DNA of 64,000 nucleotides from Candidatus Aenigmatarchaeota archaeon (lineage in GTDB: Archaea; Aenigmatarchaeota; Aenigmatarchaeia; GW2011-AR5): contig JACQID010000004.1 of the NCBI GenBank assembly GCA_016198685.1, positions 32,001 to 96,000 on the forward strand, written 5' to 3'. This document shows, piece by piece, positions 6,670-32,144 of this stretch; position 1 is the stretch's first letter, and each line of letters starts with the position of its first letter. Made by a program: the position numbers and the translations under genes. The notes under the pieces are model-generated. The model ran no database searches. It saw only the letters and a list, made by a program, of their open reading frames with translations, and was not told where the DNA came from.

Positions 6670-6870
6670 CGCGGAGCTATTGCGCTCACGAAGTGGAGGA
6701 GCCCCGTAAATCGTGCAGGACCTGAGTTTTCTTGATGGATACCTTTCGACGGGAAAGGAAACATTCTGTTTGGCGCACTTGATGTCCCATTATTACGTAT
6801 TCATGCGGCACGGCGAAACGGAGTTCTGCAGAAGGTGCACGGCGCGAGGGATAGCTTAGTACTCCCCGTA
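6670..6870 (+). ncRNA. Candidate structured non-coding RNA, family unknown
   Basis: Nested helices 6674-6680/6851-6857, 6681-6685/6842-6846, 6714-6721/6823-6830, 6735-6742/6797-6804 and 6742-6747/6753-6758, with G-U pairs valid on the + strand. Confidence 0.45.
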
Positions 6871-6879
6871 TATTAATTG

Positions 6880-7740
6880 TTATATGTTTCCGTACAAGGC
6901 GTCAAAATTTTTAGAGATGCTGTCCAATATATAGCCAAGTTTAGCCGCGGGTATCTGCGGCACGTACATCTCCATTACGGCGTCGTCTGGCATATGGTTT
7001 AAAAGCCGTCTAGATTCCCTTTTCGTAAGCATATCTCCTCTTTCATTTACTATCTGAATAATGCCTTCCCGAATCGCGTTTTTCAATTTCTTGTCCCTTT
7101 GAAGAAATACGCGTCTTGTAAGACGATCTCTTGTGGTTGATGAACTATCATCCCTTTTCCCCATATATACTAATGCAGAACGAACACGCGGCTTAGGATA
7201 GAAGGATTCTGGGGGAATTGATTCATGAATGCGCACATCATAAATTGAACGAAGCATCATAGCAAGTTTTGTATAGTCGTTGTCTTCAGAAGACGATATA
7301 ATACGGGTGACAAAATCTAGTGGCAAGATAAGACTGGAGGCAGCAGGCTCCTGAACAAAAAGTTTCTGTAAAAGTGGTTCAGAAATCCGGTATGGCACAT
7401 TCGACATGAATTTGTGGGCGGCTGGCCACGGGACGCGAAGAGCATCTCCTGTTATAAGATAGAAATTGTGATAGGATGCCAACTCTTTCGACAACAATTC
7501 ACTAAATCTTGGATCTTTTTCTATTGCATATAATGAATGTGGCATGTCGTTAAGGGCCAATCTTGCAAGATTTCCGTATCCCGGTCCCACTTCGAGAACA
7601 TTATCATAGGAAGTTATCCCGAGTAAATAGACAGTTTCTCTGGATACCGCCGAATCAATAAGGAAGTGCTGGTCCAGATTGACCGTGTCTTGCGATATGC
7701 GATTGTATGCTATTTTATCGGAACCGTCTGGAATTGTCAT
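6880..7740 (-). CDS. KsgA/Dim1/Erm-like adenine N6-methyltransferase (paralog 1)
   Basis: QHFL, VLEVGPGYG, AIEKD, GDAL, SNVPY, SFYPKPRV.SA motifs. Confidence 0.85.
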   Translation of the reverse strand: MTIPDGSDKIAYNRISQDTVNLDQHFLIDSAVSRETVYLLGITSYDNVLEVGPGYGNLARLALNDMPHSLYAIEKDPRFSELLSKELASYHNFYLITGDALRVPWPAAHKFMSNVPYRISEPLLQKLFVQEPAASSLILPLDFVTRIISSSEDNDYTKLAMMLRSIYDVRIHESIPPESFYPKPRVRSALVYMGKRDDSSSTTRDRLTRRVFLQRDKKLKNAIREGIIQIVNERGDMLTKRESRRLLNHMPDDAVMEMYVPQIPAAKLGYILDSISKNFDALYGNI

Positions 7741-7757
7741 TTGTACACCGTATTATT

Positions 7758-8663
7758 CTAAAACATGGCATCGCCATAGCGACTCTGCCAGCTTCGCCCG
7801 CCGCCTCTTGGTTTGTGACTGCCGCCCCATATCCTTTTGGGCTTGGCAGAAGACAAATATTCGAAAAATCTGGTAAATTCATAGCTTGTCAGGGCATCTA
7901 CCCTTTTGTCCATATAGGGGTTTTCAGCTCGCGTTTCCTGAACATATCTATCTATTCCGGCGTCCTGTTCTTCGGTATACTGACTCAAAGCCGCACGAAA
8001 GGCATCTTGAAGGGGCCGTTTATTCTGGTCCCAAACGCACCTCAAAGTGAATAGTGGGAAATCCTTCTTCATAGACATTTTTTCCCGGGGATATAGTCCG
8101 ACTAATACAGCGTTTGTTGAAGGTTCAGGATCGAAGCTTTCGCTCCCGACGTCCATTAAATGTTCGGGACTGAAGTAGGCATTGGTGAGAAGTCCCAGTC
8201 TTGTATCTTTTCTTCTGCAGGCGGAATTCGCGAAATTTTCCCCTACCAACAGGAAGGAAGGAGCAGGTTTTCCGTTAAATAACTTCATCATTAGCGGCTC
8301 CGTTATGTTGAACGGGATATTGCCGACCATCTTATCGTGTTTCGGAAACCTTGCAGTTATGGCATCTCCGTAAATCACGGAAACATTGGGGTGTTCCCTC
8401 TGCACATCTTCGAGGTATTGACGCATTCGAGCGTCCTTTTCTATAGCCACTACCCGGCCTGCGAACAAGGCAATTTCACGAGTAATTGACCCCTTTCCCG
8501 GGCCGATTTCTAATGCAGTTTCATAGGAATCTACATCGGCATGAAGAACCATCTGCCTCGGAATTTCACTATCTACTAGGAAGTGCTGATTTAGGACTTC
8601 TGTCTGGTTAGACGTTGTCATATGATAACCGCAATTAACATCCAGACAAACTTTATAAACCAT
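7758..8663 (-). CDS. KsgA/Dim1/Erm-like adenine N6-methyltransferase (paralog 2; start may be 8621)
   Basis: QHFL, LEIGPGKG, AIEKD, GDA, GNIPF, SFDPEP motifs. Confidence 0.85.
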   Translation of the reverse strand: MVYKVCLDVNCGYHMTTSNQTEVLNQHFLVDSEIPRQMVLHADVDSYETALEIGPGKGSITREIALFAGRVVAIEKDARMRQYLEDVQREHPNVSVIYGDAITARFPKHDKMVGNIPFNITEPLMMKLFNGKPAPSFLLVGENFANSACRRKDTRLGLLTNAYFSPEHLMDVGSESFDPEPSTNAVLVGLYPREKMSMKKDFPLFTLRCVWDQNKRPLQDAFRAALSQYTEEQDAGIDRYVQETRAENPYMDKRVDALTSYEFTRFFEYLSSAKPKRIWGGSHKPRGGGRSWQSRYGDAMF

Positions 8664-8722
8664 AGTCTGGTATCTGCCTTCTGACCGCAGAGTCTTTTTA
8701 TTTTTTCGGGATAACCAATTAT

Positions 8723-9409
8723 ATGCAAAAAATCGTTTCTCTCGTTTCCGGTGGCATGGATTCCTGCACTACAATGGCGAAAGCAGCGATGGATGGAAAT
8801 CATATATATCCATTATTTTTTAATTATGGCCAAAAATCCGCCAAAATGGAGGTTACAGCGGCCCAGAATTACATCAACGAATTGAGAAAACGGTCAGTGA
8901 ATATAAATACGCTTCAAATAGTGACGATTTCGATGCCGTTTCTGAGAGTTGCGCTCACGGGAACAGGAAACATTACAAAGGCGGCGGACAAAGACTTTCA
9001 TTCCATGGAATCGAAGAAGATAGATTGGGTGCCGGCCAGAAATGTAATTTTCCTTACTATTGCCAGTTCATACTGCGAAATTGTAAAGGCGCGATGCATT
9101 ACCATAGGCGCTTATAAGGAGGACGAAATGCCGCCGTATCCAGATTCGTCCCGGGAGTTTTTCGATTCCATGGAAATATCGTTGAGTAGAGGCATTTATG
9201 GCGACAAATTTGAAATAAGAACTCCGTTTTTGCATAATTTCAAATGGGATATGATAACATTTTCGAAGGCTAACGGGCTTCCGGTTGATGTGACGTGGTC
9301 GTGCTATGAATCCGGAGAGAAGCATTGTGGGGCATGCAGAAATTGTCTCGACAGAAAGAACGCCTTTGAAAAGGTCATGGCGCCGGACGTCACAGAGTAT
9401 GTCGTCTGA
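8723..9409 (+). CDS. queC: 7-cyano-7-deazaguanine synthase
   Basis: PP-loop SGGMDS, FNYGQK, VPARN, YPDSS, Zn site SCY-x5-HCGACRNC. Confidence 0.95.
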   Translation: MQKIVSLVSGGMDSCTTMAKAAMDGNHIYPLFFNYGQKSAKMEVTAAQNYINELRKRSVNINTLQIVTISMPFLRVALTGTGNITKAADKDFHSMESKKIDWVPARNVIFLTIASSYCEIVKARCITIGAYKEDEMPPYPDSSREFFDSMEISLSRGIYGDKFEIRTPFLHNFKWDMITFSKANGLPVDVTWSCYESGEKHCGACRNCLDRKNAFEKVMAPDVTEYVV

Positions 9410-10207
9410 TCAGTTTCTAAATTTTTTCCTGACAGAATAGACATCAAAGAGTGCTTGGGATACCCATCCGAGAGTATATGCCGAGTTCCATGCAAGCATG
9501 TAGGCCGCTACATCTAAGCCTTTTTTTGATGCTATGTCGATTTCCTTATCGTAAAACGCACCCAGACCCTTCATCAGGTTTTTTTCCACGCCAATGCGTT
9601 TTCCTACGCCATATCTCCATGCGCTCCGTAAATCTGTACAGGGTGTTAGTGGCGGATGATTTATGGTAGCCTCTACTATGTAGTTTATAGGTATATCATT
9701 TATCTGAACCCGGCGATCGAATTCGGCATCTTCCACCCAGTGGATATCCCTGTCGTACAGATAGCCCCCTATATCACTTTTTATAGATCTTCGCATGGCC
9801 AGTGGAGGTTTATAGGCGGTGATTCTGTCCGATGTTGTGTATTCTCTCGCTCTGGCTATTACATGACTAGGGTAACCCTTGGTTTGGAAAAGAACCCTGC
9901 CTTTTGCGAGTTTATAACCCTCGAGACCCTCGTAGAGCATCCGTATTGTTCCGGGATTGAATGTGCAATCCGAGTCTATAAGCAGAACCCTTTCGTTCGA
10001 TGCCGCATGTATACCTTCATCAAGAGCCGCGCCCAAGTTCCTCTCGGCAAGTTCACATGAATCCCTGCCAGATTCTTTAACTATCCGTTTTATGTCTGGA
10101 GTGGGGCCATTCATAGAAACGATTACTTCCACATCTTCATCGATGCTCTGGAGACAGTCCCTTAAGCGCAGATCGTTGGCGACAGGAATTATGATCGATA
10201 TGTCCAT
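9410..10207 (-). CDS. Glycosyltransferase family 2 (GT-A fold)
   Basis: ISIIIPV, DSD (DxD), GGYLYD, EDAEF motifs. Confidence 0.9.
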   Translation of the reverse strand: MDISIIIPVANDLRLRDCLQSIDEDVEVIVSMNGPTPDIKRIVKESGRDSCELAERNLGAALDEGIHAASNERVLLIDSDCTFNPGTIRMLYEGLEGYKLAKGRVLFQTKGYPSHVIARAREYTTSDRITAYKPPLAMRRSIKSDIGGYLYDRDIHWVEDAEFDRRVQINDIPINYIVEATINHPPLTPCTDLRSAWRYGVGKRIGVEKNLMKGLGAFYDKEIDIASKKGLDVAAYMLAWNSAYTLGWVSQALFDVYSVRKKFRN

Positions 10208-10220
10208 TTAAAATTACTAT

Positions 10221-10898
10221 ATGTCAATGATTATATGCATGGTATTTAACAATACTGTTATGGTTTTTGCCGCTCACCCGGACGACGAATCTATAGGATG
10301 CGGGGGTAGTATGGCCAAGTATGCTAGTCAGGGACGTCGACTGTTTCTGACATGCATGACATCATCGAATTCGCAAGACGCGAGAGAGATACGCGAAACG
10401 GAAGCCCATAATGCTGCCAAAAAATTGGGTGTGGAAGAGTTGTTCTTTCTTCGAGAACCCGATAGATTTCTTGAGTATAATAGAAATGCATTGATACCCA
10501 CAATCAACCTCCTAAGGCGAACGCGACCGGATTATATATTCATTCCGCATCCCGATGAGCATGATCGTGACCATAGGTCTGCATACGACATAAGTAGCGA
10601 AGCCGCATGGTTGTCTTCAAGTCCTTATATGCCGGAATTGGGCAAGCCCTGCGATATCAAAGGCATATTTATGTATGAAGTATGGACACCAATACAACAC
10701 CCTCAATATTTTGAAGATATTACAGGATTTGTCCAACAAAAGAGGAGTGCCATAGAGTGCTATGGGTCGCAGATATCGCATGTCAATTATGCGGATGCGG
10801 CTATCGGCCTGAATAAATTTCGGGGCATAATGAGTGGTACAGGTGATTTTTCCGAGGCATTTCTGATAAAGCGTTTAAGAGATGTCTGTATGAAATGA
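10221..10898 (+). CDS. PIG-L/LmbE-family N-acetylsugar deacetylase
   Basis: AHPDDESIGCGG, RETEA..AA..LGV and H.DH metal-binding motifs. Confidence 0.92.
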   Translation: MSMIICMVFNNTVMVFAAHPDDESIGCGGSMAKYASQGRRLFLTCMTSSNSQDAREIRETEAHNAAKKLGVEELFFLREPDRFLEYNRNALIPTINLLRRTRPDYIFIPHPDEHDRDHRSAYDISSEAAWLSSSPYMPELGKPCDIKGIFMYEVWTPIQHPQYFEDITGFVQQKRSAIECYGSQISHVNYADAAIGLNKFRGIMSGTGDFSEAFLIKRLRDVCMK

Positions 10899-10902
10899 TG
10901 CC

Positions 10903-11604
10903 ATGAATGGCGTTACCTGGGTGAAGAATATACTGCATACGACATATACCAAAATTTCCAATGATTTTATAAGGTCGGACCTTTCGACAAACAAATACGC
11001 TCCTGCGGAGAATGTTATAAAGACCCTGAGAGAGTCTATACCCAGAATTTCGGCGTATCCCGACAGGAATTGGTCGTTATTGACGAAGAAAATAGAAAGT
11101 TATACGGGAATTTCGGACGATCATATGTTGACGACCAATGGTCTCAAAAAGGCAATAATCTCATTGTAATGAGAAATTTCTCAAATCTTTTGGTCTGGCC
11201 GGTATGCGGCTGGGATACATCATAGCGCATCCTGAAACGGTAGACATGTTGCTGCGGTTGAGGCGCCATCGAGAGTCAATATGATGGTGCAACGCGCGGC
11301 CATAGCTTGCAATGATAGCGTTGATTATTATGCAAGCACATGGGTAAAAGCGAAAAAGACGGTAAAGAGACTTGTAGATGAATTGACCGTTATTGGACTA
11401 TATGCCGAACCTTCTGCAACGAATTTTGTGTATATCAGAACTTCTCGCGCGGAGGCAATATTTTACCATCTCTGGAAAAATAAAATCTCGGTGTTCCCTT
11501 CATGGGACTCCGAATTTATAGATGCGGATCGCGATGGGCTCAGAATAGTCGCTGGCCTGCCGGACGAGAATATCGCATTATTGAAAGCATTGAAAACCAT
11601 GTAA
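10903..11604 (+). pseudogene. HisC-like class I/II PLP aminotransferase, internally deleted and frameshifted
   Basis: YPD and TNG motifs, then directly NNLIVMRNFS(K)SFGLAGMRLGY across frame changes; the central NPNNPTG/DEAY segment is absent; C-terminal PSATNFV and LRI motifs present. Confidence 0.8.
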
Positions 11605-11616
11605 GGCGGCATGATT

Positions 11617-13317
11617 CTATTTCTCAATCATGAAATCACCGATGAAAAGGTAATCCATGCCGCTTCCATACATAGTGCGTAGTGCATCTCTGGGACTACA
11701 TACAAGCGCCTCTCCTTTTACATTAAGGGAAGTGTTGACGACTACCGGAACACCCGTGATTTCGCCCACATTTTCTATGAGTTTCCTATATCTGGGATTG
11801 CTTTTTTTATCAACCGTCTGAGGCCTAGTTGTACCATCTACGTGAACTACCGCAGGTATATCTCCGGCCCGATCTTTGCGGACATCAAATCCTAATATCA
11901 TATATGGTGAAGAATGCGGTTGTTCCAGATAATTGGCCGCCGCTTCATCGAGCATCGAAGGGCCAAATGGCCTGTACCACTCTCTGTATTTTACTGCTTC
12001 ATTCAGTCTGTTTTTCATATCAGGATTTCTTGGGTCGGCAAGTATGCTTCTGTTGCCCAATGCTCTGGGTCCCCATTCCATGCCACCTTGAAACCAGCCT
12101 ACTATTTTTCCGTTTGTGATAAGCTGCGCGGCCATGCCTTCGGGATCATCTTGGTATTTGAATGGTATCTTGAGCGATAGTAGCTCCCTTTCAATGGCTT
12201 CTTCTGAGAATGCCGGCCCCAGATAGACATTCGGAATAATTGTTCTGGCGTTGTATCCCAGTCGGGAATAGAGCTCTAGAGCGGCGCCCATACTGCATCC
12301 CGCGTCATTGGCAGCCGGTTGGATAAATATATCATCCACAATACCGGAACGCAATATCTTGCCGTTGGCGACGCAATTCAATCCCACACCCCCGGATAGT
12401 GACAGGTTCTTAGAGCCAGTTTCTTCAACAGCAATTTTGGCAAGATATAACATCATATCTTCGACTATGGCTTGTGCCGAAGCGGCGGCATCCATATAAA
12501 CCGGGGTCATGATAGTTTCACGCGCGAATTTTTTCGCATCTTGGTCATAGATGAATGAAGGCGCATTGGCCCTTCCAAATCGGCTGGAGAATAATTTTAC
12601 CCATTGCTCGCGTATTTGGGTTTCTTCATCGCTGACTCCGTCTTTTCCAAGTACTATTCCCGACCTGTTTATATTGGACCTATAGCTTTTGCCGTTAGTT
12701 GTGAAAGCGTCTGACAGTGACATTCTTCGTCTGCCGTATGCTGCAAGCCCCATAGTCTTGCCAGGTTCGTTGGGTTCTAAGCCCACGAATCCCGTCGAGG
12801 CCTCGTAAAAATATCCCAATGAATCAGGTATGCCTATTTTTCTGACTAATTTTATTTGGTTTCCGTCTCCATACCACAAGGAAGTGGAGACGTCTTCGCC
12901 CTGCCCGTCCGCCACTACAATGGCGCTTTTGTCGTAGCCCGAGACTCGGAATGCGCTTGAAGCATGCGACAAATGATGCTCGATGAAAGAAATCCGCGGA
13001 GATTTACCATAATCAAACATTGTTCTGGGGAATATTTGTTCTGGGAGAGTACTTTCATCTAGGCGGTCCGTCATGCCTCTAATTTTATAATGATACGGCC
13101 AGTCCCAGTAAACCGCTACATGATCTATTTCGTTGACTCCTATGCCGGCGACATCAAGGCAGTACTTGATGGAATTATGAGGCAATGTGTCGTATGAATA
13201 CTTTTTTCTGATCAGTTTTTCCTCTTCTACCGCAGCTACAATTTTGCCGTCTTTTAGAAGCGTTGCCGACGCATCATGACCTCTATCGTTCCAGCCTGCA
13301 ATACCAAGTATGTACAT
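11617..13317 (-). CDS. O-carbamoyltransferase (NodU/CmcH/TobZ family)
   Basis: HDAS, HHLSHA, DGQGE, GKTMGLAAYG, GGVGLNC, NDAG, GPRALGNRSIL, RPFGP, HVDGT.RPQ, NTSLN motifs; likely start MYILGI at 13317. Confidence 0.95.
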   Translation of the reverse strand: MYILGIAGWNDRGHDASATLLKDGKIVAAVEEEKLIRKKYSYDTLPHNSIKYCLDVAGIGVNEIDHVAVYWDWPYHYKIRGMTDRLDESTLPEQIFPRTMFDYGKSPRISFIEHHLSHASSAFRVSGYDKSAIVVADGQGEDVSTSLWYGDGNQIKLVRKIGIPDSLGYFYEASTGFVGLEPNEPGKTMGLAAYGRRRMSLSDAFTTNGKSYRSNINRSGIVLGKDGVSDEETQIREQWVKLFSSRFGRANAPSFIYDQDAKKFARETIMTPVYMDAAASAQAIVEDMMLYLAKIAVEETGSKNLSLSGGVGLNCVANGKILRSGIVDDIFIQPAANDAGCSMGAALELYSRLGYNARTIIPNVYLGPAFSEEAIERELLSLKIPFKYQDDPEGMAAQLITNGKIVGWFQGGMEWGPRALGNRSILADPRNPDMKNRLNEAVKYREWYRPFGPSMLDEAAANYLEQPHSSPYMILGFDVRKDRAGDIPAVVHVDGTTRPQTVDKKSNPRYRKLIENVGEITGVPVVVNTSLNVKGEALVCSPRDALRTMYGSGMDYLFIGDFMIEK

Positions 13318-13365
13318 ACAAATAACACGATTTTTTATTCTTAAACATCTTCGCATATTGTCATT

Positions 13366-14139
13366 ATGGGGAAAGGTGTTGATGCATCGTTTTGGGATAA
13401 AGTGGGTTCGGAGATAGGATACGACTTTACATCATTGCGCTTATACCGCGAAGGCGAAAATTGTGAGGAAAAATTCAGGCGACTTGTCACGAATAATATC
13501 TGCCAAAACAGCGTAGCAATTGACATAGGGGTCGCTGACGGCTCGTTTGATATTAGTTTATCCGATAAGCTGAAATTTATCGTAGGCATTGACACTTCTA
13601 CAAAAATGATTGAAAAAGCGCGCCAAAAACTCGCGATTTCCGGATCAAGAAACGTATTCTTATCCATCTCGGACGGTAGGGAATTACCGTTTGCTGATGC
13701 ACAATTTGACATTTCGATTAGTAGGAGAGGACCCAGTACTTCCAGCATGGAATTTCTTCTGGAAACCAAGCGTATTTTGAACAGGGGCGGGATATTTCTA
13801 GAGATAACTATAGGTGAGAAAGACAAAGAAAATATAAAGAGAATATTCGGAAGAGGGCAGAATTATACGGCGCTGATGGCAGGCAGAAGCGAAATGTTAA
13901 GAAAAAAGGCCATGCTGCAAAAAGCGGGTTTCGTGGACATAGAAGTGAGTGAAATGAATTCGGCGGAATTCTACGAGTCCGTGGAGGATATTATGTTTCT
14001 CCTTCGCAACACCCCGATAATTCCCGACTTTAACAGGATTAATGACATGGAGTATATTCATAAACTGATGAAAGACGCAAAAACGGAGAGGGGAATACGC
14101 ACGAATAGCCATCGAATTATCATATCGGCAAGGAAATGA
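13366..14139 (+). CDS. Class I SAM-dependent methyltransferase
   Basis: DIGVADG motif I, GIDTS, LPFADAQFD, RIL..GG motifs. Confidence 0.9.
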   Translation: MGKGVDASFWDKVGSEIGYDFTSLRLYREGENCEEKFRRLVTNNICQNSVAIDIGVADGSFDISLSDKLKFIVGIDTSTKMIEKARQKLAISGSRNVFLSISDGRELPFADAQFDISISRRGPSTSSMEFLLETKRILNRGGIFLEITIGEKDKENIKRIFGRGQNYTALMAGRSEMLRKKAMLQKAGFVDIEVSEMNSAEFYESVEDIMFLLRNTPIIPDFNRINDMEYIHKLMKDAKTERGIRTNSHRIIISARK

Positions 14140-14140
14140 T

Positions 14141-14899
14141 TCATCTGCCCCTATCCGACCCCCATAGAAGAATATGTAATCTCGGCGTGAATCCGTATCC
14201 AGATGCTTTGCACGTCTCCACGATGAACCGGGATCTGCGGAGTACATCCTCACGTGTCGTGCCCTCCGGCATTAATAGGACCTTGTTTTTTTGGATTTTG
14301 TAACGCGCGACAATATCGTTGATTCCGTAGATATCGTTCTCAGAGCAAACTACAAATTTAAACCATGCGGTATTAGCATTTGAAAAAAAGGACAGAGCTG
14401 CGGCATTTTCTCTCATAATAGCCCTGTTTCCAGAGGATTCGAGTTTGGGCGAAACATTCCATTGTTTTATGCTGGCAGAAAAGAGCTCATTTGGGACTAT
14501 GGTGCCGTTCGTTTCCGTTTCGATATAGTAGCCTAATTCATTAACACAGTTTAGGAATTTCAAGAGCTCCGGATCTTTTTGCTGCAGCAATGGTTCCCCG
14601 CCTGTAAGTACTATGCGTTTACAGTCAAATTTCTCTATAGTTTGTATTAACTCTTCGGATAGCATATCGATACTTTCTTTGAAGGGGTGATAGAGTTTGG
14701 TATCCTCTCTGGGGGCGGAAGAATTGTCCGTAGTAGCCTTCTCAACGTTCTTTAGCATTTGTTTGCTGAAAAGCCATGTATATTTTGTGTCGCACCACCA
14801 GCAATGTAAATTGCATGAAGAAAGCCGGATAAAAATCGAAGGAATGCCGAGAGAGCGACCTTCGCCTTGCACGGAATAGAATACTTCATTTACCTTCAT
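14141..14899 (-). CDS. queE: 7-carboxy-7-deazaguanine synthase (radical SAM)
   Basis: FYSVQGEG, CNLHCWWCDT (CxxxCxxC), TGGEP, ETNG, SPKL, PRLH; ATG at 14899 overlaps the queD 3' end. Confidence 0.95.
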   Translation of the reverse strand: MKVNEVFYSVQGEGRSLGIPSIFIRLSSCNLHCWWCDTKYTWLFSKQMLKNVEKATTDNSSAPREDTKLYHPFKESIDMLSEELIQTIEKFDCKRIVLTGGEPLLQQKDPELLKFLNCVNELGYYIETETNGTIVPNELFSASIKQWNVSPKLESSGNRAIMRENAAALSFFSNANTAWFKFVVCSENDIYGINDIVARYKIQKNKVLLMPEGTTREDVLRRSRFIVETCKASGYGFTPRLHILLWGSDRGR

Positions 14900-15257
14900 T
14901 GTCTTTCCAGTATTCCGCATATTGATTTTGGGATTCCCAAACCCTTACCCTCTCCAGATTTTTGATGCCCTTGTCCTCCAGTTTATGGAATAATATTTTC
15001 GAGACATTCTCGGCCGTAGCATTGTTTCCCAGAATGTTATTAAGATGATTGTGGTCAAATTCGCTCAGACATGATCGAAGCCCACTTTTTAATTCTATGA
15101 AGTCAGAATTTTCTAAAATCCCATTGGAATCTGTAGTTTGACCTGTTACGAACACTTCCACTTTATACGTATGTCCGTGGAGGTTTCTGCATTTCCCAGC
15201 ATGCCCAGGTATGCTATGTGACGCGTCAAAATGGTCCTCTATGCGCAATCGAAACAT
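14886..15257 (-). CDS. queD: 6-carboxy-5,6,7,8-tetrahydropterin synthase
   Basis: FDASH, C-x3-HGHTY, DH..LN, TAEN, WES motifs; ATG overlaps the upstream TAA (TAATG). Confidence 0.95.
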   Translation of the reverse strand: MFRLRIEDHFDASHSIPGHAGKCRNLHGHTYKVEVFVTGQTTDSNGILENSDFIELKSGLRSCLSEFDHNHLNNILGNNATAENVSKILFHKLEDKGIKNLERVRVWESQNQYAEYWKDNEGK

Positions 15258-16021
15258 TATAACGTCCCCTCCCATTGCGAAGAGATGTTATGATCATGGA
15301 TTGACTCGAAGCTTATGCACTTGATATGACATTGCCTTCGCGGATATTCGGCCTTCAGTTCAGCCGCGCATTTACGTACAACGTCCTCCACAAACATGGG
15401 GTTTTGGTGGATTTTTTCCACAACCGATTTTTCTTGCGGGCGTTTCAGCAAACTATATGTCGGTGAACTAAAGCACGAATTGCATATATCAATAAGATAA
15501 GCGTGATTTATTGGGGCCCCCGTAGTGTCCAATCGTAGTTGCAATTCACCGCGTTGGTTATGCGTCAGCCCACCAGTCAATTCTTTTGAACATGGGCATG
15601 CTAAGATGCCTTTCAATGAAAGCTCTATGGTTCTTTGCTTTGTTCTCGTATCATAAGTAGCGCAAACGTTTACTATAGCAGTTTCCTTTCCCCCAGAAAC
15701 GTTTCTTTTATGAAATGGCATTATGCCAGAAACCTTCGTTTCGCAATGATAGTGGTGTTTTTCCAGTATGCTCTTTGCAAGGGTCTCCGCGACGTCTTCA
15801 ATGGAATGCATATTTGAACTCAGGTTGTGTATAGATTCAATGAACCTGCTCATGTGGGCACCCCTTTGATGAGCCGGCAAAGTGACGTATGCGTCAATGG
15901 ACATTACGCATTGATATGCATCTGAGTCACTGCCTACAATTATGAGTTTTTTTACGTTTTCTACCCCCACGCGGGATAGCTCTAATGGATTTGCGGGTAC
16001 AGAATTTTGAACATCTATCAT
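15257..16021 (-). CDS. folE2: GTP cyclohydrolase type IB / MptA family
   Basis: DVQ, VGV, HMSRF, CPCS, HNQR, PMFVEDVVR, ESIHDH motifs. Confidence 0.9.
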   Translation of the reverse strand: MIDVQNSVPANPLELSRVGVENVKKLIIVGSDSDAYQCVMSIDAYVTLPAHQRGAHMSRFIESIHNLSSNMHSIEDVAETLAKSILEKHHYHCETKVSGIMPFHKRNVSGGKETAIVNVCATYDTRTKQRTIELSLKGILACPCSKELTGGLTHNQRGELQLRLDTTGAPINHAYLIDICNSCFSSPTYSLLKRPQEKSVVEKIHQNPMFVEDVVRKCAAELKAEYPRRQCHIKCISFESIHDHNISSQWEGTL

Positions 16022-16143
16022 TCTTTATCTATGTAGTTCAACAATTAAAATCTTCTATTCAGCAATATATTGCAAATTCGAGAAAATAACCACTTCGGCA
16101 TCAATGATAAGTTTCGAGAGGTACTTTTTGGCGGGGTGACTCA

Positions 16144-16264
16144 TGCACCATCCGGGATTTGAACCCGGATCACGAGCTGTTTCCATGCTATTTTAATACA
16201 GCATACGATGCAGCGAAGTTGCGGGCATTGGGAAGCTCGAATCCTGCCATTAGACTAATGGTGC
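16144..16264 (-). tRNA. tRNA-Gly(CCC) with a 50-nt intron at 37/38
   Basis: Acceptor GCACCAT/ATGGTGC, anticodon stem CGAGC/GCTCG, T-arm CCGGG-TTCAAAT-CCCGG; BHB with TTCC/GGAA helix and CAA/ACA bulges. Confidence 0.95.
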
Positions 16265-16950: not shown

Positions 16951-18321
16951 TTGTCGCCCGCTTGCAACATTATAAACGGATATGCGGATAGTAGGCCTAT
17001 GCGGCTCAGAAGAACTGTGGGTGTCTGGGGCGCGACATCCGTAGGAATTGCTAATATCATTGGCGCAGGCATATTCGTACTGAGCGGTGTCGCCGCAGGC
17101 ATTGCCGGGCCATCCGTTATATTATCATTCTTTATCGCAGGCTTCATAGCGTTGATGACCGCGCTCTCGGCAGCCGAACTTTCATCGCTAATAACCGAAA
17201 CAGGTGCCAGTTATGCCTTTACCAAGAAAGCTTTCGGCAGGTTTTGGAGTTTCCTCGTAGGCTGGTTCAAGTATTTTGATTATACTGTCGGTGCCGCCGC
17301 TGTATCCGTAGGCTTTGCAGCGTATTTTGCCGCGTTTTTCGGAATGAACGGGCCCACTGCCTTGGCATTATCGGCCGTTGGCTTGCCGGTCGCGCTTACT
17401 ATTCTGAATCTGATTGGCGTACGTGAAACCGCCCGGGCTACTGCAGCGATGGTTTTTGTTAAAGTCTTTGCGCTAGTCCTGCTTGTGATGCTCGGGATTT
17501 TTTATCTTGGGCAGAATTTCAATGCCTCTCATTATACGCCGTTTTTTGTCAATGGCTTGGGCGGCACACTTGAAGCTGCTGCTGTAGTATTCTTCGCGTT
17601 CCTTGGGTTCAATACCGTGAGCATGATGTCCGAGGAAACGAAAAATCCTGAGAAGACTATTCCGCGTGCATTAATGATAGCTTTTTTCGTCTCATTCATA
17701 CTTTATATGGCAATAGCGGTGGTGGAAATCGGAGTTCTGGACTGGAACACCATGGGATCAACAGCATCTCCCTTGATAGAACTTGCGGCAGCGTTGACGT
17801 CTAACCGGATGTTCATGGACTTTATTGCATTCTCTGCCATGGTAGCAACAGGTTCTGTAGCCCTGAGCTCAATGATAGGTGGCACGAGAACGAGCTATGT
17901 GATGGGGCGCGATGGCCTTCTTCCGCGCCAGTTCGAATCTGTCAGCAAACGGTTCGGAACGCCTTATATTTCCATACTTGTCAGCGGCATGATAATTACA
18001 GTACTTGCAGGACTTTTCGCTGATAATATAGCACTCATAGTTTCAATCGTGAATTTCGGAAGCCTCTTCACTTACATGTTTACTCATTTATCGTTAATAA
18101 GATTGCGCCACCTCATGCCTAAGGCAAAGCGTCATTTCAGAGTTCCCGCTTATCCAGTCGTGCCTATTATCGGAATAATAAGTTGCCTTTTTTTCATGTT
18201 TTATCTCAGTGTTGATGCCAAGGTGGCAGCAATGTTATGGGCAGCTATAGGGATTGTTGCATATGCGGTTTTTCACACTAAAAGAAGCAAAGTTCCTCTA
18301 GGATTTTTAGTCAAGGATTAG
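16951..18321 (+). CDS. APC-family amino acid permease (start probably the ATG of MRLRRT)
   Basis: IIGAGIF, ELSS...TG.SY, FLGF..VS..SEETKNPEKTIPRA and R..Y.MGRDG motifs; 12 TM. Confidence 0.93.
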   Translation: MSPACNIINGYADSRPMRLRRTVGVWGATSVGIANIIGAGIFVLSGVAAGIAGPSVILSFFIAGFIALMTALSAAELSSLITETGASYAFTKKAFGRFWSFLVGWFKYFDYTVGAAAVSVGFAAYFAAFFGMNGPTALALSAVGLPVALTILNLIGVRETARATAAMVFVKVFALVLLVMLGIFYLGQNFNASHYTPFFVNGLGGTLEAAAVVFFAFLGFNTVSMMSEETKNPEKTIPRALMIAFFVSFILYMAIAVVEIGVLDWNTMGSTASPLIELAAALTSNRMFMDFIAFSAMVATGSVALSSMIGGTRTSYVMGRDGLLPRQFESVSKRFGTPYISILVSGMIITVLAGLFADNIALIVSIVNFGSLFTYMFTHLSLIRLRHLMPKAKRHFRVPAYPVVPIIGIISCLFFMFYLSVDAKVAAMLWAAIGIVAYAVFHTKRSKVPLGFLVKD

Positions 18322-18347: not shown

Positions 18348-18420
18348 TGGGCCCGCTGTGATTTGAACACAGGCCTCGGCCACCCCAAGGCCGGATCCTA
18401 CCAAGCTAGACTACAGGCCC
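18348..18420 (-). tRNA. tRNA-Pro(GGG)
   Basis: Acceptor GGGCCTG/CGGGCCC, anticodon arm CGGCC-TTGGGGT-GGCCG, T-arm CTGTG-TTCAAAT-CACAG. Confidence 0.95.
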
Positions 18421-31763: not shown

Positions 31764-32144
31764 CTACTTCTCAAGCGGGCATCCGGTGAGCGCGCCCAAT
31801 TCTGCTGAACTTAATCTTCCCTGTTTCCTTGTGCCGTCAGCAAATTCCCACGTCGGGTATTTGTTCACGCCTGCATCGCTGCATATTCCAGGATTATTGA
31901 TTTCCATGGCGCAGTCAGTGGCATTGATATTCTGCCAGCTCAGCCCGAATTCCTTCTGCTGTTCTGTGCACTCCTTGCACCAGTATGTTCCGTAGAATTT
32001 GACGCCTTTTTCCGTGAGACACTCGGAGAACGCGTCATAATCAATCTTGGTTGCATGGCCCGTGGGAGGCGTAATCATCGTTGTTAGAAGGAAAGTCGCG
32101 GCAACGACAAATCCGGCTATAATGCCGACTTGGAAGGGTTTCAT
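31764..32144 (-). CDS. Membrane-anchored thioredoxin-like protein
   Basis: FYGTYWCKEC (CxxC), YPTW; N-terminal TM. Confidence 0.85.
   Translation of the reverse strand: MKPFQVGIIAGFVVAATFLLTTMITPPTGHATKIDYDAFSECLTEKGVKFYGTYWCKECTEQQKEFGLSWQNINATDCAMEINNPGICSDAGVNKYPTWEFADGTRKQGRLSSAELGALTGCPLEK

Follow-up and report, generated by a model that had tools for sequence, protein, structure and literature searches.

The 64,000-nucleotide stretch analysed here (hereafter the window), positions 32,001 to 96,000 of contig JACQID010000004.1 from a Candidatus Aenigmatarchaeota archaeon (assembly GCA_016198685.1), holds at 6880-16021 what is most likely a single biosynthetic block of 11 genes. These comprise the four genes for 7-cyano-7-deazaguanine (preQ0), a family 2 glycosyltransferase (GT2), a PIG-L deacetylase, a broken aminotransferase, a TobZ-type carbamoyltransferase, an S-adenosylmethionine (SAM)-dependent methyltransferase and two methylases of the KsgA/Erm family (Table 1). 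Judging from its sequence, the block is probably a cluster for a small carbamoyl-hexosaminyl, methylated 7-deazaguanine conjugate, not a system for modifying tRNA or DNA, and by analogy with streptothricin the product is possibly a ribosome inhibitor. In short, this is most likely a cluster for 7-deazapurine biosynthesis that makes use of the streptothricin sugar cassette; it occurs in DPANN archaea and belongs to a family without a known product.

A probable preQ0 pathway without a known route to nucleic acid

The window genes were assigned by Pfam and NCBIfam scans. All four preQ0 enzyme families (PF02649, PF01242, PF04055 and PF06508) exceed their Pfam cut-offs, and the motifs of QueC (PP-loop SGGMDS and zinc site CGACRNC) and QueE (cluster motif CNLHCWWC, of the form CxxxCxxC) are intact. 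An earlier note, made from the letters of the DNA, had listed nine genes from QueC to FolE2 with almost no space between them. All nine are in place and are separated by 0-59 bp where they do not overlap, but the inventory had overlooked the two KsgA/Erm-family genes at 6880-8663.

The que genes of the block are the genome's only set, with one real QueC. This QueC is, by sequence comparison, a divergent subfamily of its own and not an ordinary orthologue: 16 cluster-linked proteins are 53-61% identical to it, and every other QueC is at most 38% identical. The TGT (tRNA-guanine transglycosylase) family, DpdA included (PF01702), has no match in the genome, which is 93.7% complete (935 kb in 8 contigs); the same profile matched 14 of 14 known genomes. 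The genome likewise has no match to the ArcS domain DUF5591 (PF17884) or to QueF and QueF-like proteins (PF14489). The absence of TGT, ArcS, QueF and DpdA that had been noted for the window thus holds genome-wide, and neither archaeosine genes nor a second que set was found.

The same picture extends to the relatives. A true QueC was found in none of 40 genomes of the same order, where the weak matches are other PP-loop enzymes of 320-630 aa, and it is also absent from the four congeners searched. TGT was found in one of the 40 and not in the other 39. Since TGT and QueC are missing across the order, the block is not archaeosine housekeeping, and that explanation was ruled out. Archaeosine (aTGT/ArcS) and Dpd (DpdA) systems have the four preQ0 enzymes in common with the block, but the search for the transglycosylase that defines them was negative for this genome and for 39 of the 40 relatives. 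Dpd-type DNA modification also finds no counterpart in the form of a PF01702-like match in the genome or a viral GT2 relative in the collections searched. According to a published rule, secondary metabolism is indicated where the complete 7-deazapurine pathway is present but neither DpdA nor TGT is (bioRxiv 10.64898/2026.04.15.718813).

The earlier note had named three things that would count against a dedicated cluster: que genes that are the only ones in the genome, que genes that group with ordinary archaeosine orthologues, and cassette genes that never occur with que genes elsewhere. None of the three applies in full. The genome does have just this one que set, yet it lacks a TGT that would make use of it; QueC groups with the cluster-linked proteins and not with the ordinary orthologues; and the glycosyltransferase, PIG-L and carbamoyltransferase genes occur together with que genes in at least five phyla.

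The sugar cassette and its streptothricin relatives

The GT2 protein has a DSD motif at residues 78-80 that is invariant across the GT2 alignment, and it belongs to a distinct subfamily that numbers 188 cluster representatives at E ≤ 1e-30. Its AlphaFold2 (AF2) model (pLDDT 93.6) has a GT-A fold, for which Foldseek returns generic GT-A enzymes at TM values of about 0.55-0.6 (WrtF, AvpGT, TarP and hyaluronan synthase). Against PDB sequences, the GT2 profile matched only the N-terminal nucleotide-binding half; neither comparison points to an acceptor. The PIG-L protein has an intact zinc motif (AHPDDE); its nearest NCBIfam model is BshB1, and its nearest solved structures are BC1534, BshB1 and diacetylchitobiose deacetylase. 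The carbamoyltransferase matches TobZ over its full length (PDB 3ven, E 2.8e-119), an enzyme that O-carbamoylates aminoglycoside sugars. It is 38-58% identical to the carbamoyltransferases that adjoin GT2 in all related loci and 36% identical to the genome's own surface-glycan paralogue on contig C1. The SAM methyltransferase has orthologues of 38-49% identity in loci L025, L027, L029 and L030 and no solved relative at E ≤ 1e-5. Donors for the cassette could plausibly be supplied, as the genome encodes carbamoyl-phosphate synthase and seven sugar nucleotidyltransferases.

The C1 paralogue is a second TobZ-like carbamoyltransferase (G000:C1:116462-117961; L069 7403-8965) and is the copy conserved in relatives. 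It lies in a surface-glycan locus with GDP-mannose dehydratase, epimerase, GT1/GT4, sulfatase, phosphodiesterase and methyltransferase genes.

In a plasmid collection, two Streptomyces plasmids were found to carry a member of the GT2 subfamily. On the S. globosus plasmid, according to the record annotation, this glycosyltransferase occurs together with a PIG-L deacetylase and a carbamoyltransferase, and the cluster also includes lysine 2,3-aminomutase, VioC-like and VioD-like enzymes, adenylation domains, an epimerase and a GNAT protein. S. globosus is reported to carry a streptothricin cluster (PMC13248635); the plasmid cluster was taken as streptothricin-type from its gene content and that report, and it is with the enzymes of this cluster that the block was compared. 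The window GT2 is 40% identical to the S. globosus glycosyltransferase over 209 residues (E 7e-45), the PIG-L proteins are 34% identical (E 4e-34), and the carbamoyltransferases are 42% identical over the 72 residues present in the locus. In the tree, the S. globosus glycosyltransferase falls inside the subfamily, among its que-linked members, and a 98% branch separates the outgroup GT2s.

The streptothricin cassette (the guanidino-N-glycosyltransferase StnG, the N-acetyl-gulosamine deacetylase StnI and a carbamoyltransferase) thus has homologous GT2, PIG-L and TobZ-type carbamoyltransferase genes in the block. None of the streptolidine (VioC/VioD-like), lysine 2,3-aminomutase, adenylation, epimerase or GNAT genes occurs in the window block. 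Since the genes for streptolidine, β-lysine and adenylation are missing, the block shares the cassette only and is no streptothricin cluster. The two differ in the base, for which the block uses FolE2, QueD, QueE and QueC and streptothricin the streptolidine genes, and apparently also in self-protection, which is by acetylation (GNAT) in streptothricin and would be by the extra KsgA/Erm-family methylases in the block.

According to Guo et al. 2015, as cited in PMC10156733, the cassette builds a carbamoylated amino-sugar (D-gulosamine) on a guanidino nitrogen by glycosylation, deacetylation and carbamoylation. On the ribosome, the streptolidine of streptothricin F acts as a guanine mimetic that pairs with C1054 of 16S rRNA, and the carbamoyl sugar contacts A1196 (PMC10187937). 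7-Deazaguanine offers the same cyclic guanidine as the streptothricin acceptor. The streptothricin scaffold is under re-examination against drug-resistant Gram-negative bacteria, and this family reuses its sugar cassette.

Relation to known 7-deazapurine clusters

The huimycin cluster (huiA-G of Kutzneria albida; MIBiG BGC0002354) combines preQ0 genes with a SAM methyltransferase and a glycosyltransferase, as does the block, and the same has been proposed for dapiramicin, which is an N2-glycoside of the same base as huimycin. Huimycin itself is the N2-GlcNAc glycoside of O6-methyl-preQ0 (PMC7439116). HuiC and the block methyltransferase belong to the same broad Pfam family, PF08241, but the glycosyltransferases differ: HuiG is a GT4 enzyme (PF13439) with a GT-B fold, and that of the block is a GT2 enzyme (PF00535) with a GT-A fold (HuiC and HuiG assignments from bioRxiv 10.64898/2026.04.15.718813). 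HuiG is therefore no homologue of the block GT2. Of the earlier idea of a glycosylated preQ0, the small-molecule branch is favoured, and it is the streptothricin sugar cassette that provides the homologous precedent. The hui cluster also uses a type I FolE in place of FolE2 and, unlike the block, has neither a PIG-L nor an rRNA-methylase gene. A carbamoyltransferase gene, KALB_4074, adjoins huiG but is not needed for huimycin (PMC7439116).

Like the block, the clusters of the RoyL type (roseomycin A) have an enzyme of the QueC family in the context of secondary metabolism and no TGT. In these, however, amino acids are joined to 7-carboxy-7-deazaguanine (CDG) through an amide, and the clusters contain ATP-grasp and TauD proteins and no glycosyltransferase, deacetylase or carbamoyltransferase.

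No cluster with the enzyme set of the block was found described in the searchable literature. A search on preQ0 or deazapurine with carbamoyltransferase gave only the huimycin paper, beside a B. subtilis annotation review, and one on 7-deazaguanine with rRNA methyltransferase and self-resistance gave nothing. A 2026 survey of 7-deazapurine clusters covers bacteria only and mentions neither carbamoyltransferases nor PIG-L.

Conservation of the neighbourhood

Gene contexts were read for 18 loci in which the GT2 is 34-65% identical to that of the window. A TobZ-type carbamoyltransferase adjoins the GT2 in all 18, and PIG-L is present in most. In 16 of the loci, 7-deazaguanine genes lie within 10 kb of the GT2, the exceptions being one short contig and one contig end. 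The archaeal hosts are Aenigmatarchaeota, other uncultured archaea, a Woesearchaeota metagenome-assembled genome (MAG) and a contig binned as Methanosarcinales; the bacterial hosts are Shapirobacteria, Saccharibacteria, Bacillus, Paenibacillus, Metabacillus, Defluviitaleaceae and Micrococcus. The nearest homologue of the cluster comes from a MAG titled Aenigmatarchaeota, and two Aenigmatarchaeota MAGs have the same nine genes in identical order, with the aminotransferase intact. A 13-gene version, all on one strand, is found on 16 plasmids of the Bacillus cereus group, which are large and mostly conjugative. Cultured strains of B. mycoides, B. toyonensis and B. cereus carry the cluster on plasmids, which makes the family directly testable. 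Natural products containing 7-deazapurine are known almost only from actinomycetes; this family spans archaea, the candidate phyla radiation (CPR), Firmicutes and Actinobacteria.

The neighbourhood search that had been suggested thus turned up the cluster in archaea and CPR bacteria, but not in viruses: an alignment-based pattern scan of limited sensitivity with the GT2 turned up no relative in IMG/VR, and the protein had no match in 50,697 phage records.

The supply of the base is more variable. The GTP cyclohydrolase is FolE2 here and a type I FolE in the bacterial versions and in an unassigned 93-kb metagenome contig (L048), and the QueC of the bacterial versions is only 25-29% identical to that of the window. 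Given these differing origins of the que genes, the tailoring cassette appears to be the constant part of the cluster and the base supply to be recruited locally. The CPR versions have an extra YhhQ-family transporter and a QueF-like protein. The bacterial versions add an ABC or MFS exporter, a DUF5591 protein, a BpsA-type aminopropyltransferase and sometimes a SAM decarboxylase. We take DUF5591 to be the archaeosine-synthase (ArcS) domain, used by ArcS on the nitrile of preQ0; its profile matched only three archaeal control genomes (M. jannaschii, H. volcanii and M. acetivorans). In the B. cereus plasmid pBc138-312k (L070 5538-16469) and in Micrococcus (L065 6298-18105), DUF5591 stands alone or is fused to the SAM decarboxylase, alongside the aminopropyltransferase. 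The combination hints at an amidine or polyamine tail that is not found in the archaeal version.

Other members of the GT2 subfamily adjoin genes for different GTP-derived heterocycles, namely GTP cyclohydrolase II; PTPS with Rieske and 2-oxoglutarate (2OG) oxygenases; and QueC with many radical-SAM genes. On a 181-kb metagenome contig (L050 3409-9807), a subfamily GT2 occurs with GTP cyclohydrolase II, two PIG-L genes, FemAB/acetyltransferase-like genes and an NpmA-like 16S rRNA methyltransferase; this has the look of a further cluster for a purine-derived glycoside, with an rRNA methylase as partner. Genes for a Rieske oxygenase, PTPS (QueD-like), a 2OG oxygenase and a subfamily GT2 recur together (L064 5586-11235 and L067 7398-10852), the GT2 of L064 being fused to an APH-type kinase; this set is possibly a pterin or deazapurine glycoside pathway. 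In L066 (3049-20816), some ten radical-SAM/SPASM genes surround QueC and a subfamily GT2, together with another GT2 and genes for a methyltransferase and a UbiA prenyltransferase; the 20 kb viewed show no further que genes.

The KsgA/Erm-family methylases

The two genes to the left of QueC, RrnaAD1 and RrnaAD2, have the SAM motifs LEVGPGYG and LEIGPGKG and the catalytic motifs NVPY and NIPF, respectively. The genome has three RrnaAD genes, two in the block and one on C1, against at most one in each relative. In a maximum-likelihood tree, the C1 copy (G000:C1:243963-244499) forms a housekeeping clade with the single copies of the relatives (support 100/99). The cluster-linked copies fall beyond the 100/99 branch that bounds this clade and are not resolved as one clade of their own. 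RrnaAD2 groups with its cluster-linked counterparts in L036, L025 and L029 (44-48% identity) in a clade of 100/99 support, and RrnaAD1 lies outside the housekeeping clade on a long branch, grouping weakly with the cluster-linked copy of L033. The members of the RrnaAD2 clade (window, L025, L029 and L036) have a basic C-terminal tail, HKPRGG...W...YG, that neither the housekeeping copies nor the remaining cluster-linked copies in the alignment have.

The cluster also contains or adjoins RrnaAD-family genes in Woesearchaeota, Shapirobacteria, Saccharibacteria and the 93-kb metagenome contig. The Firmicutes and Micrococcus versions have no RrnaAD gene and have an exporter. Such an either-or pattern of RrnaAD and exporter would be expected of alternative self-protection genes.

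The Erm family provides self-resistance in macrolide producers. As in producer self-resistance of the Erm/KsgA kind, the block copies have the PF00398 fold with intact SAM and N-[IV]-P-[YF] motifs, and they are cluster-linked extras to a housekeeping copy encoded elsewhere. Neither Erm nor KsgA is clearly nearer to the block copies, and the RrnaAD2 clade has a C-terminal domain of its own.

A proposed pathway and product

The evidence consists of gene content, homology and co-occurrence, and the chemistry proposed here is inferred from these. FolE2, QueD, QueE and QueC would convert GTP to preQ0. GT2 would then glycosylate the base at its guanidine-like N2 with an N-acetylhexosamine, for which UDP-GlcNAc is the probable donor, and PIG-L would take off the acetyl group to free the amine. 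The TobZ-like enzyme would O-carbamoylate a hydroxyl of the sugar, using carbamoyl phosphate and ATP. The SAM methyltransferase would act either on O6 of the base, as in huimycin, or on the freed sugar amine, as does NodS. The extra KsgA/Erm-family methylases would probably modify the producer's own rRNA, and this proposed self-methylation would point to the ribosome as the likely target. Since the aminotransferase step is lost here, the product, if it is still made, would be a trimmed version. The masses calculated from elemental composition for the successive proposed species are 175.0494 (preQ0), 336.1182 (with hexosamine), 379.1240 (with carbamoyl) and 393.1397 (with methyl; [M+H]+ 394.147), to which the bacterial versions would add aminopropyl units.

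The earlier note had left the choice between a small molecule and a hypermodified RNA or DNA base. The exporters of the bacterial versions and the lack of GT2 relatives in the viral collections favour the former and disfavour the latter.

A more specific proposal, drawn by analogy and to be regarded as unlikely, is that the product is a ribosome inhibitor akin to streptothricin, with a true 7-deazaguanine in the place of streptolidine. The KsgA/Erm-type methylases would then N6-methylate the rRNA adenine contacted by the carbamoyl sugar (the A1196 equivalent in helix 34, or one nearby), and the compounds would form a cross-domain family of antibiotics of ultra-small DPANN and CPR symbionts and of Bacillus plasmids. 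If the product does inhibit the ribosome, this would be a rare instance in which symbionts with reduced genomes have antibiotic-type chemistry and protect themselves at the target site, and it would offer a test, provided by nature, of the view that streptothricin binds as a guanine mimetic.

Several points weigh against a carbamoyl-hexosaminyl 7-deazaguanine pathway. Most of the que genes fall under the NCBIfam equivalog cut-offs: QueC scores 132 bits against TIGR00364 (cut-off 150), QueD is borderline with 88.8 against TIGR03367 (cut-off 89.25), and the top five NCBIfam models for QueE are all QueE types, each matched under its own cut-off. The archaeal version is without a dedicated exporter, the nearby MFS gene being common to a relative without the block, and the permease near the block is not conserved in the other versions. 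The gene strands alternate, so that the block is not one operon. The acceptor atom, sugar donor and methylation site are assigned by analogy, and the KsgA/Erm-family genes could be tailoring enzymes instead of resistance genes. None of the family members has a known product. Finally, the pathway may be decaying, given the dead aminotransferase and a deletion in a congener.

The aminotransferase pseudogene and loss of the block

The aminotransferase had been described as broken, which the comparison with intact orthologues bears out. Its pieces lie at 10918-11157, 11177-11266 (in another frame) and 11266-11601. Relative to the intact 357-aa orthologues of L025 and L029, residues 88-210 (about 370 bp) are deleted and there is a frameshift at about 11266 in the assembled sequence. 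The aminotransferase is not part of the core, as the bacterial and CPR versions are without it. The ten other genes of the block are full length compared with their orthologues and keep their catalytic motifs.

A genome of the same genus, G003, has flanks that are 84-91% identical to those of the block but is without exactly window positions 6681-16167 (junction at L068, G003:C11, 16021-16074). The whole block is thus gained or lost as one unit. In G003, the last ~24 nt of the tRNA-Gly(CCC) gene are missing, with homology stopping at 16168, as are the first ~28 codons of a CBS gene. The clipped 3' end of the tRNA and 5' end of the CBS gene mean that the G003 state is best read as a deletion; insertion of the block at the tRNA was rejected on the same grounds. 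G003 may be without a working tRNA-Gly(CCC) at the deletion site. Together, the dead aminotransferase and the deletion in a congener suggest relaxed selection in the genus.

Alternative explanations

It is conceivable, but unlikely, that the block is a relic in the process of decay, from which no product arises in this genome any more, the chemistry of the family possibly being as described. The deletion and frameshift in the aminotransferase, the precise loss of the block from G003 and the failure to find QueC in four congeners would all fit. However, the ten other genes have their full length and their catalytic motifs, and the one gene that is broken lies outside the core. A different chemistry, in which QueC is a RoyL-like amide ligase that joins CDG to an amine, such as the sugar amine freed by PIG-L, through an amide instead of an N-glycosidic bond, is distinctly unlikely. 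QueC homologues of the RoyL type do form CDG amides (bioRxiv 10.64898/2026.04.15.718813). The cluster QueC is divergent and under the TIGR00364 cut-off, and the order of glycosyl transfer, PIG-L deacetylation and ligation to the free amine is the logic of bacillithiol, whose BshB1 is the nearest PIG-L model. On the other hand, the QueC of the Bacillus plasmids is named as such by the RefSeq annotation pipeline, and the Bacillus clusters add a DUF5591 protein, presumably an ArcS domain acting on the preQ0 nitrile. The GT2 would moreover need another acceptor, and none is encoded.

Hypermodification of rRNA, tRNA or DNA that is independent of TGT, with the KsgA/Erm-like proteins as part of the machinery, is very unlikely. 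Such a role would explain why the RrnaAD genes, a family that to our knowledge acts on rRNA only, travel with the cluster, and why the archaeal version is without a clear exporter. It would, however, require a base-exchange enzyme, of which there is none in the genome, and the insertion of a base is beyond GT2 enzymes, whose substrates are nucleotide sugars. Instead of RrnaAD, the bacterial versions have ABC or MFS exporters, no GT2 relative was found in IMG/VR or the phage records, and the homologous streptothricin cassette makes a small molecule. Chance adjacency of unrelated que genes to a surface-glycan module of GT2, deacetylase, carbamoyltransferase and methyltransferase is nearly excluded. 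Such sets of enzymes do occur in glycan loci, and the genome has its second carbamoyltransferase in one, but it is this paralogue that is common to the relatives, and the window copy is only distantly similar to it (36% identity). The window-type copy is always accompanied by GT2, and in 16 of the 18 loci by que genes, in hosts from two domains of life, and the block comes and goes as a unit.

Layout of the block and neighbouring features

The G+C content of the block, 0.44, is like that of the genome (0.452). On the right, the block is bounded by a tRNA-Gly(CCC) gene that was missed by a default tRNA scan of the window, which gave tRNA-Pro and tRNA-Gln only.

Table 1. Genes of the block and its right-hand boundary, in window coordinates.
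Feature	Position	Strand	Evidence
RrnaAD1, extra KsgA/Erm-family adenine-N6 methyltransferase, 286 aa	6880..7740	-	PF00398, E 1e-34
RrnaAD2, cluster-linked KsgA/Erm-family methyltransferase, 301 aa, candidate self-protection gene	7758..8663	-	PF00398, E 2e-34
QueC, 7-cyano-7-deazaguanine synthase family	8723..9409	+	PF06508, E 2e-46
GT2 glycosyltransferase	9410..10207	-	PF00535
PIG-L/LmbE-family de-N-acetylase	10221..10898	+	PF02585, E 2e-27
Class I/II (HisC-like) aminotransferase pseudogene	10903..11604	+	Remnants
TobZ/NodU-type carbamoyltransferase, 579 aa	11617..13356	-	PF02543 + PF16861
Class I SAM-dependent methyltransferase	13366..14139	+	PF13649/PF08241/PF13847
QueE, 7-carboxy-7-deazaguanine synthase, radical SAM	14141..14920	-	PF04055
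QueD, 6-carboxytetrahydropterin synthase family	14886..15275	-	PF01242, E 1e-29
FolE2/MptA-type GTP cyclohydrolase IB	15257..16021	-	PF02649, E 6e-62
tRNA-Gly(CCC), 50-nt intron in anticodon loop, right-hand block boundary	16144..16264	-	aragorn, introns allowed

Beyond this boundary, an APC-family amino-acid permease gene (16951-18321, + strand) lies beside tRNA-Pro(GGG) (18348-18420). It is absent from the syntenic site in G003, and the relatives have only a paralogue of 30-33% identity, which makes this a second, separate indel beside a tRNA.

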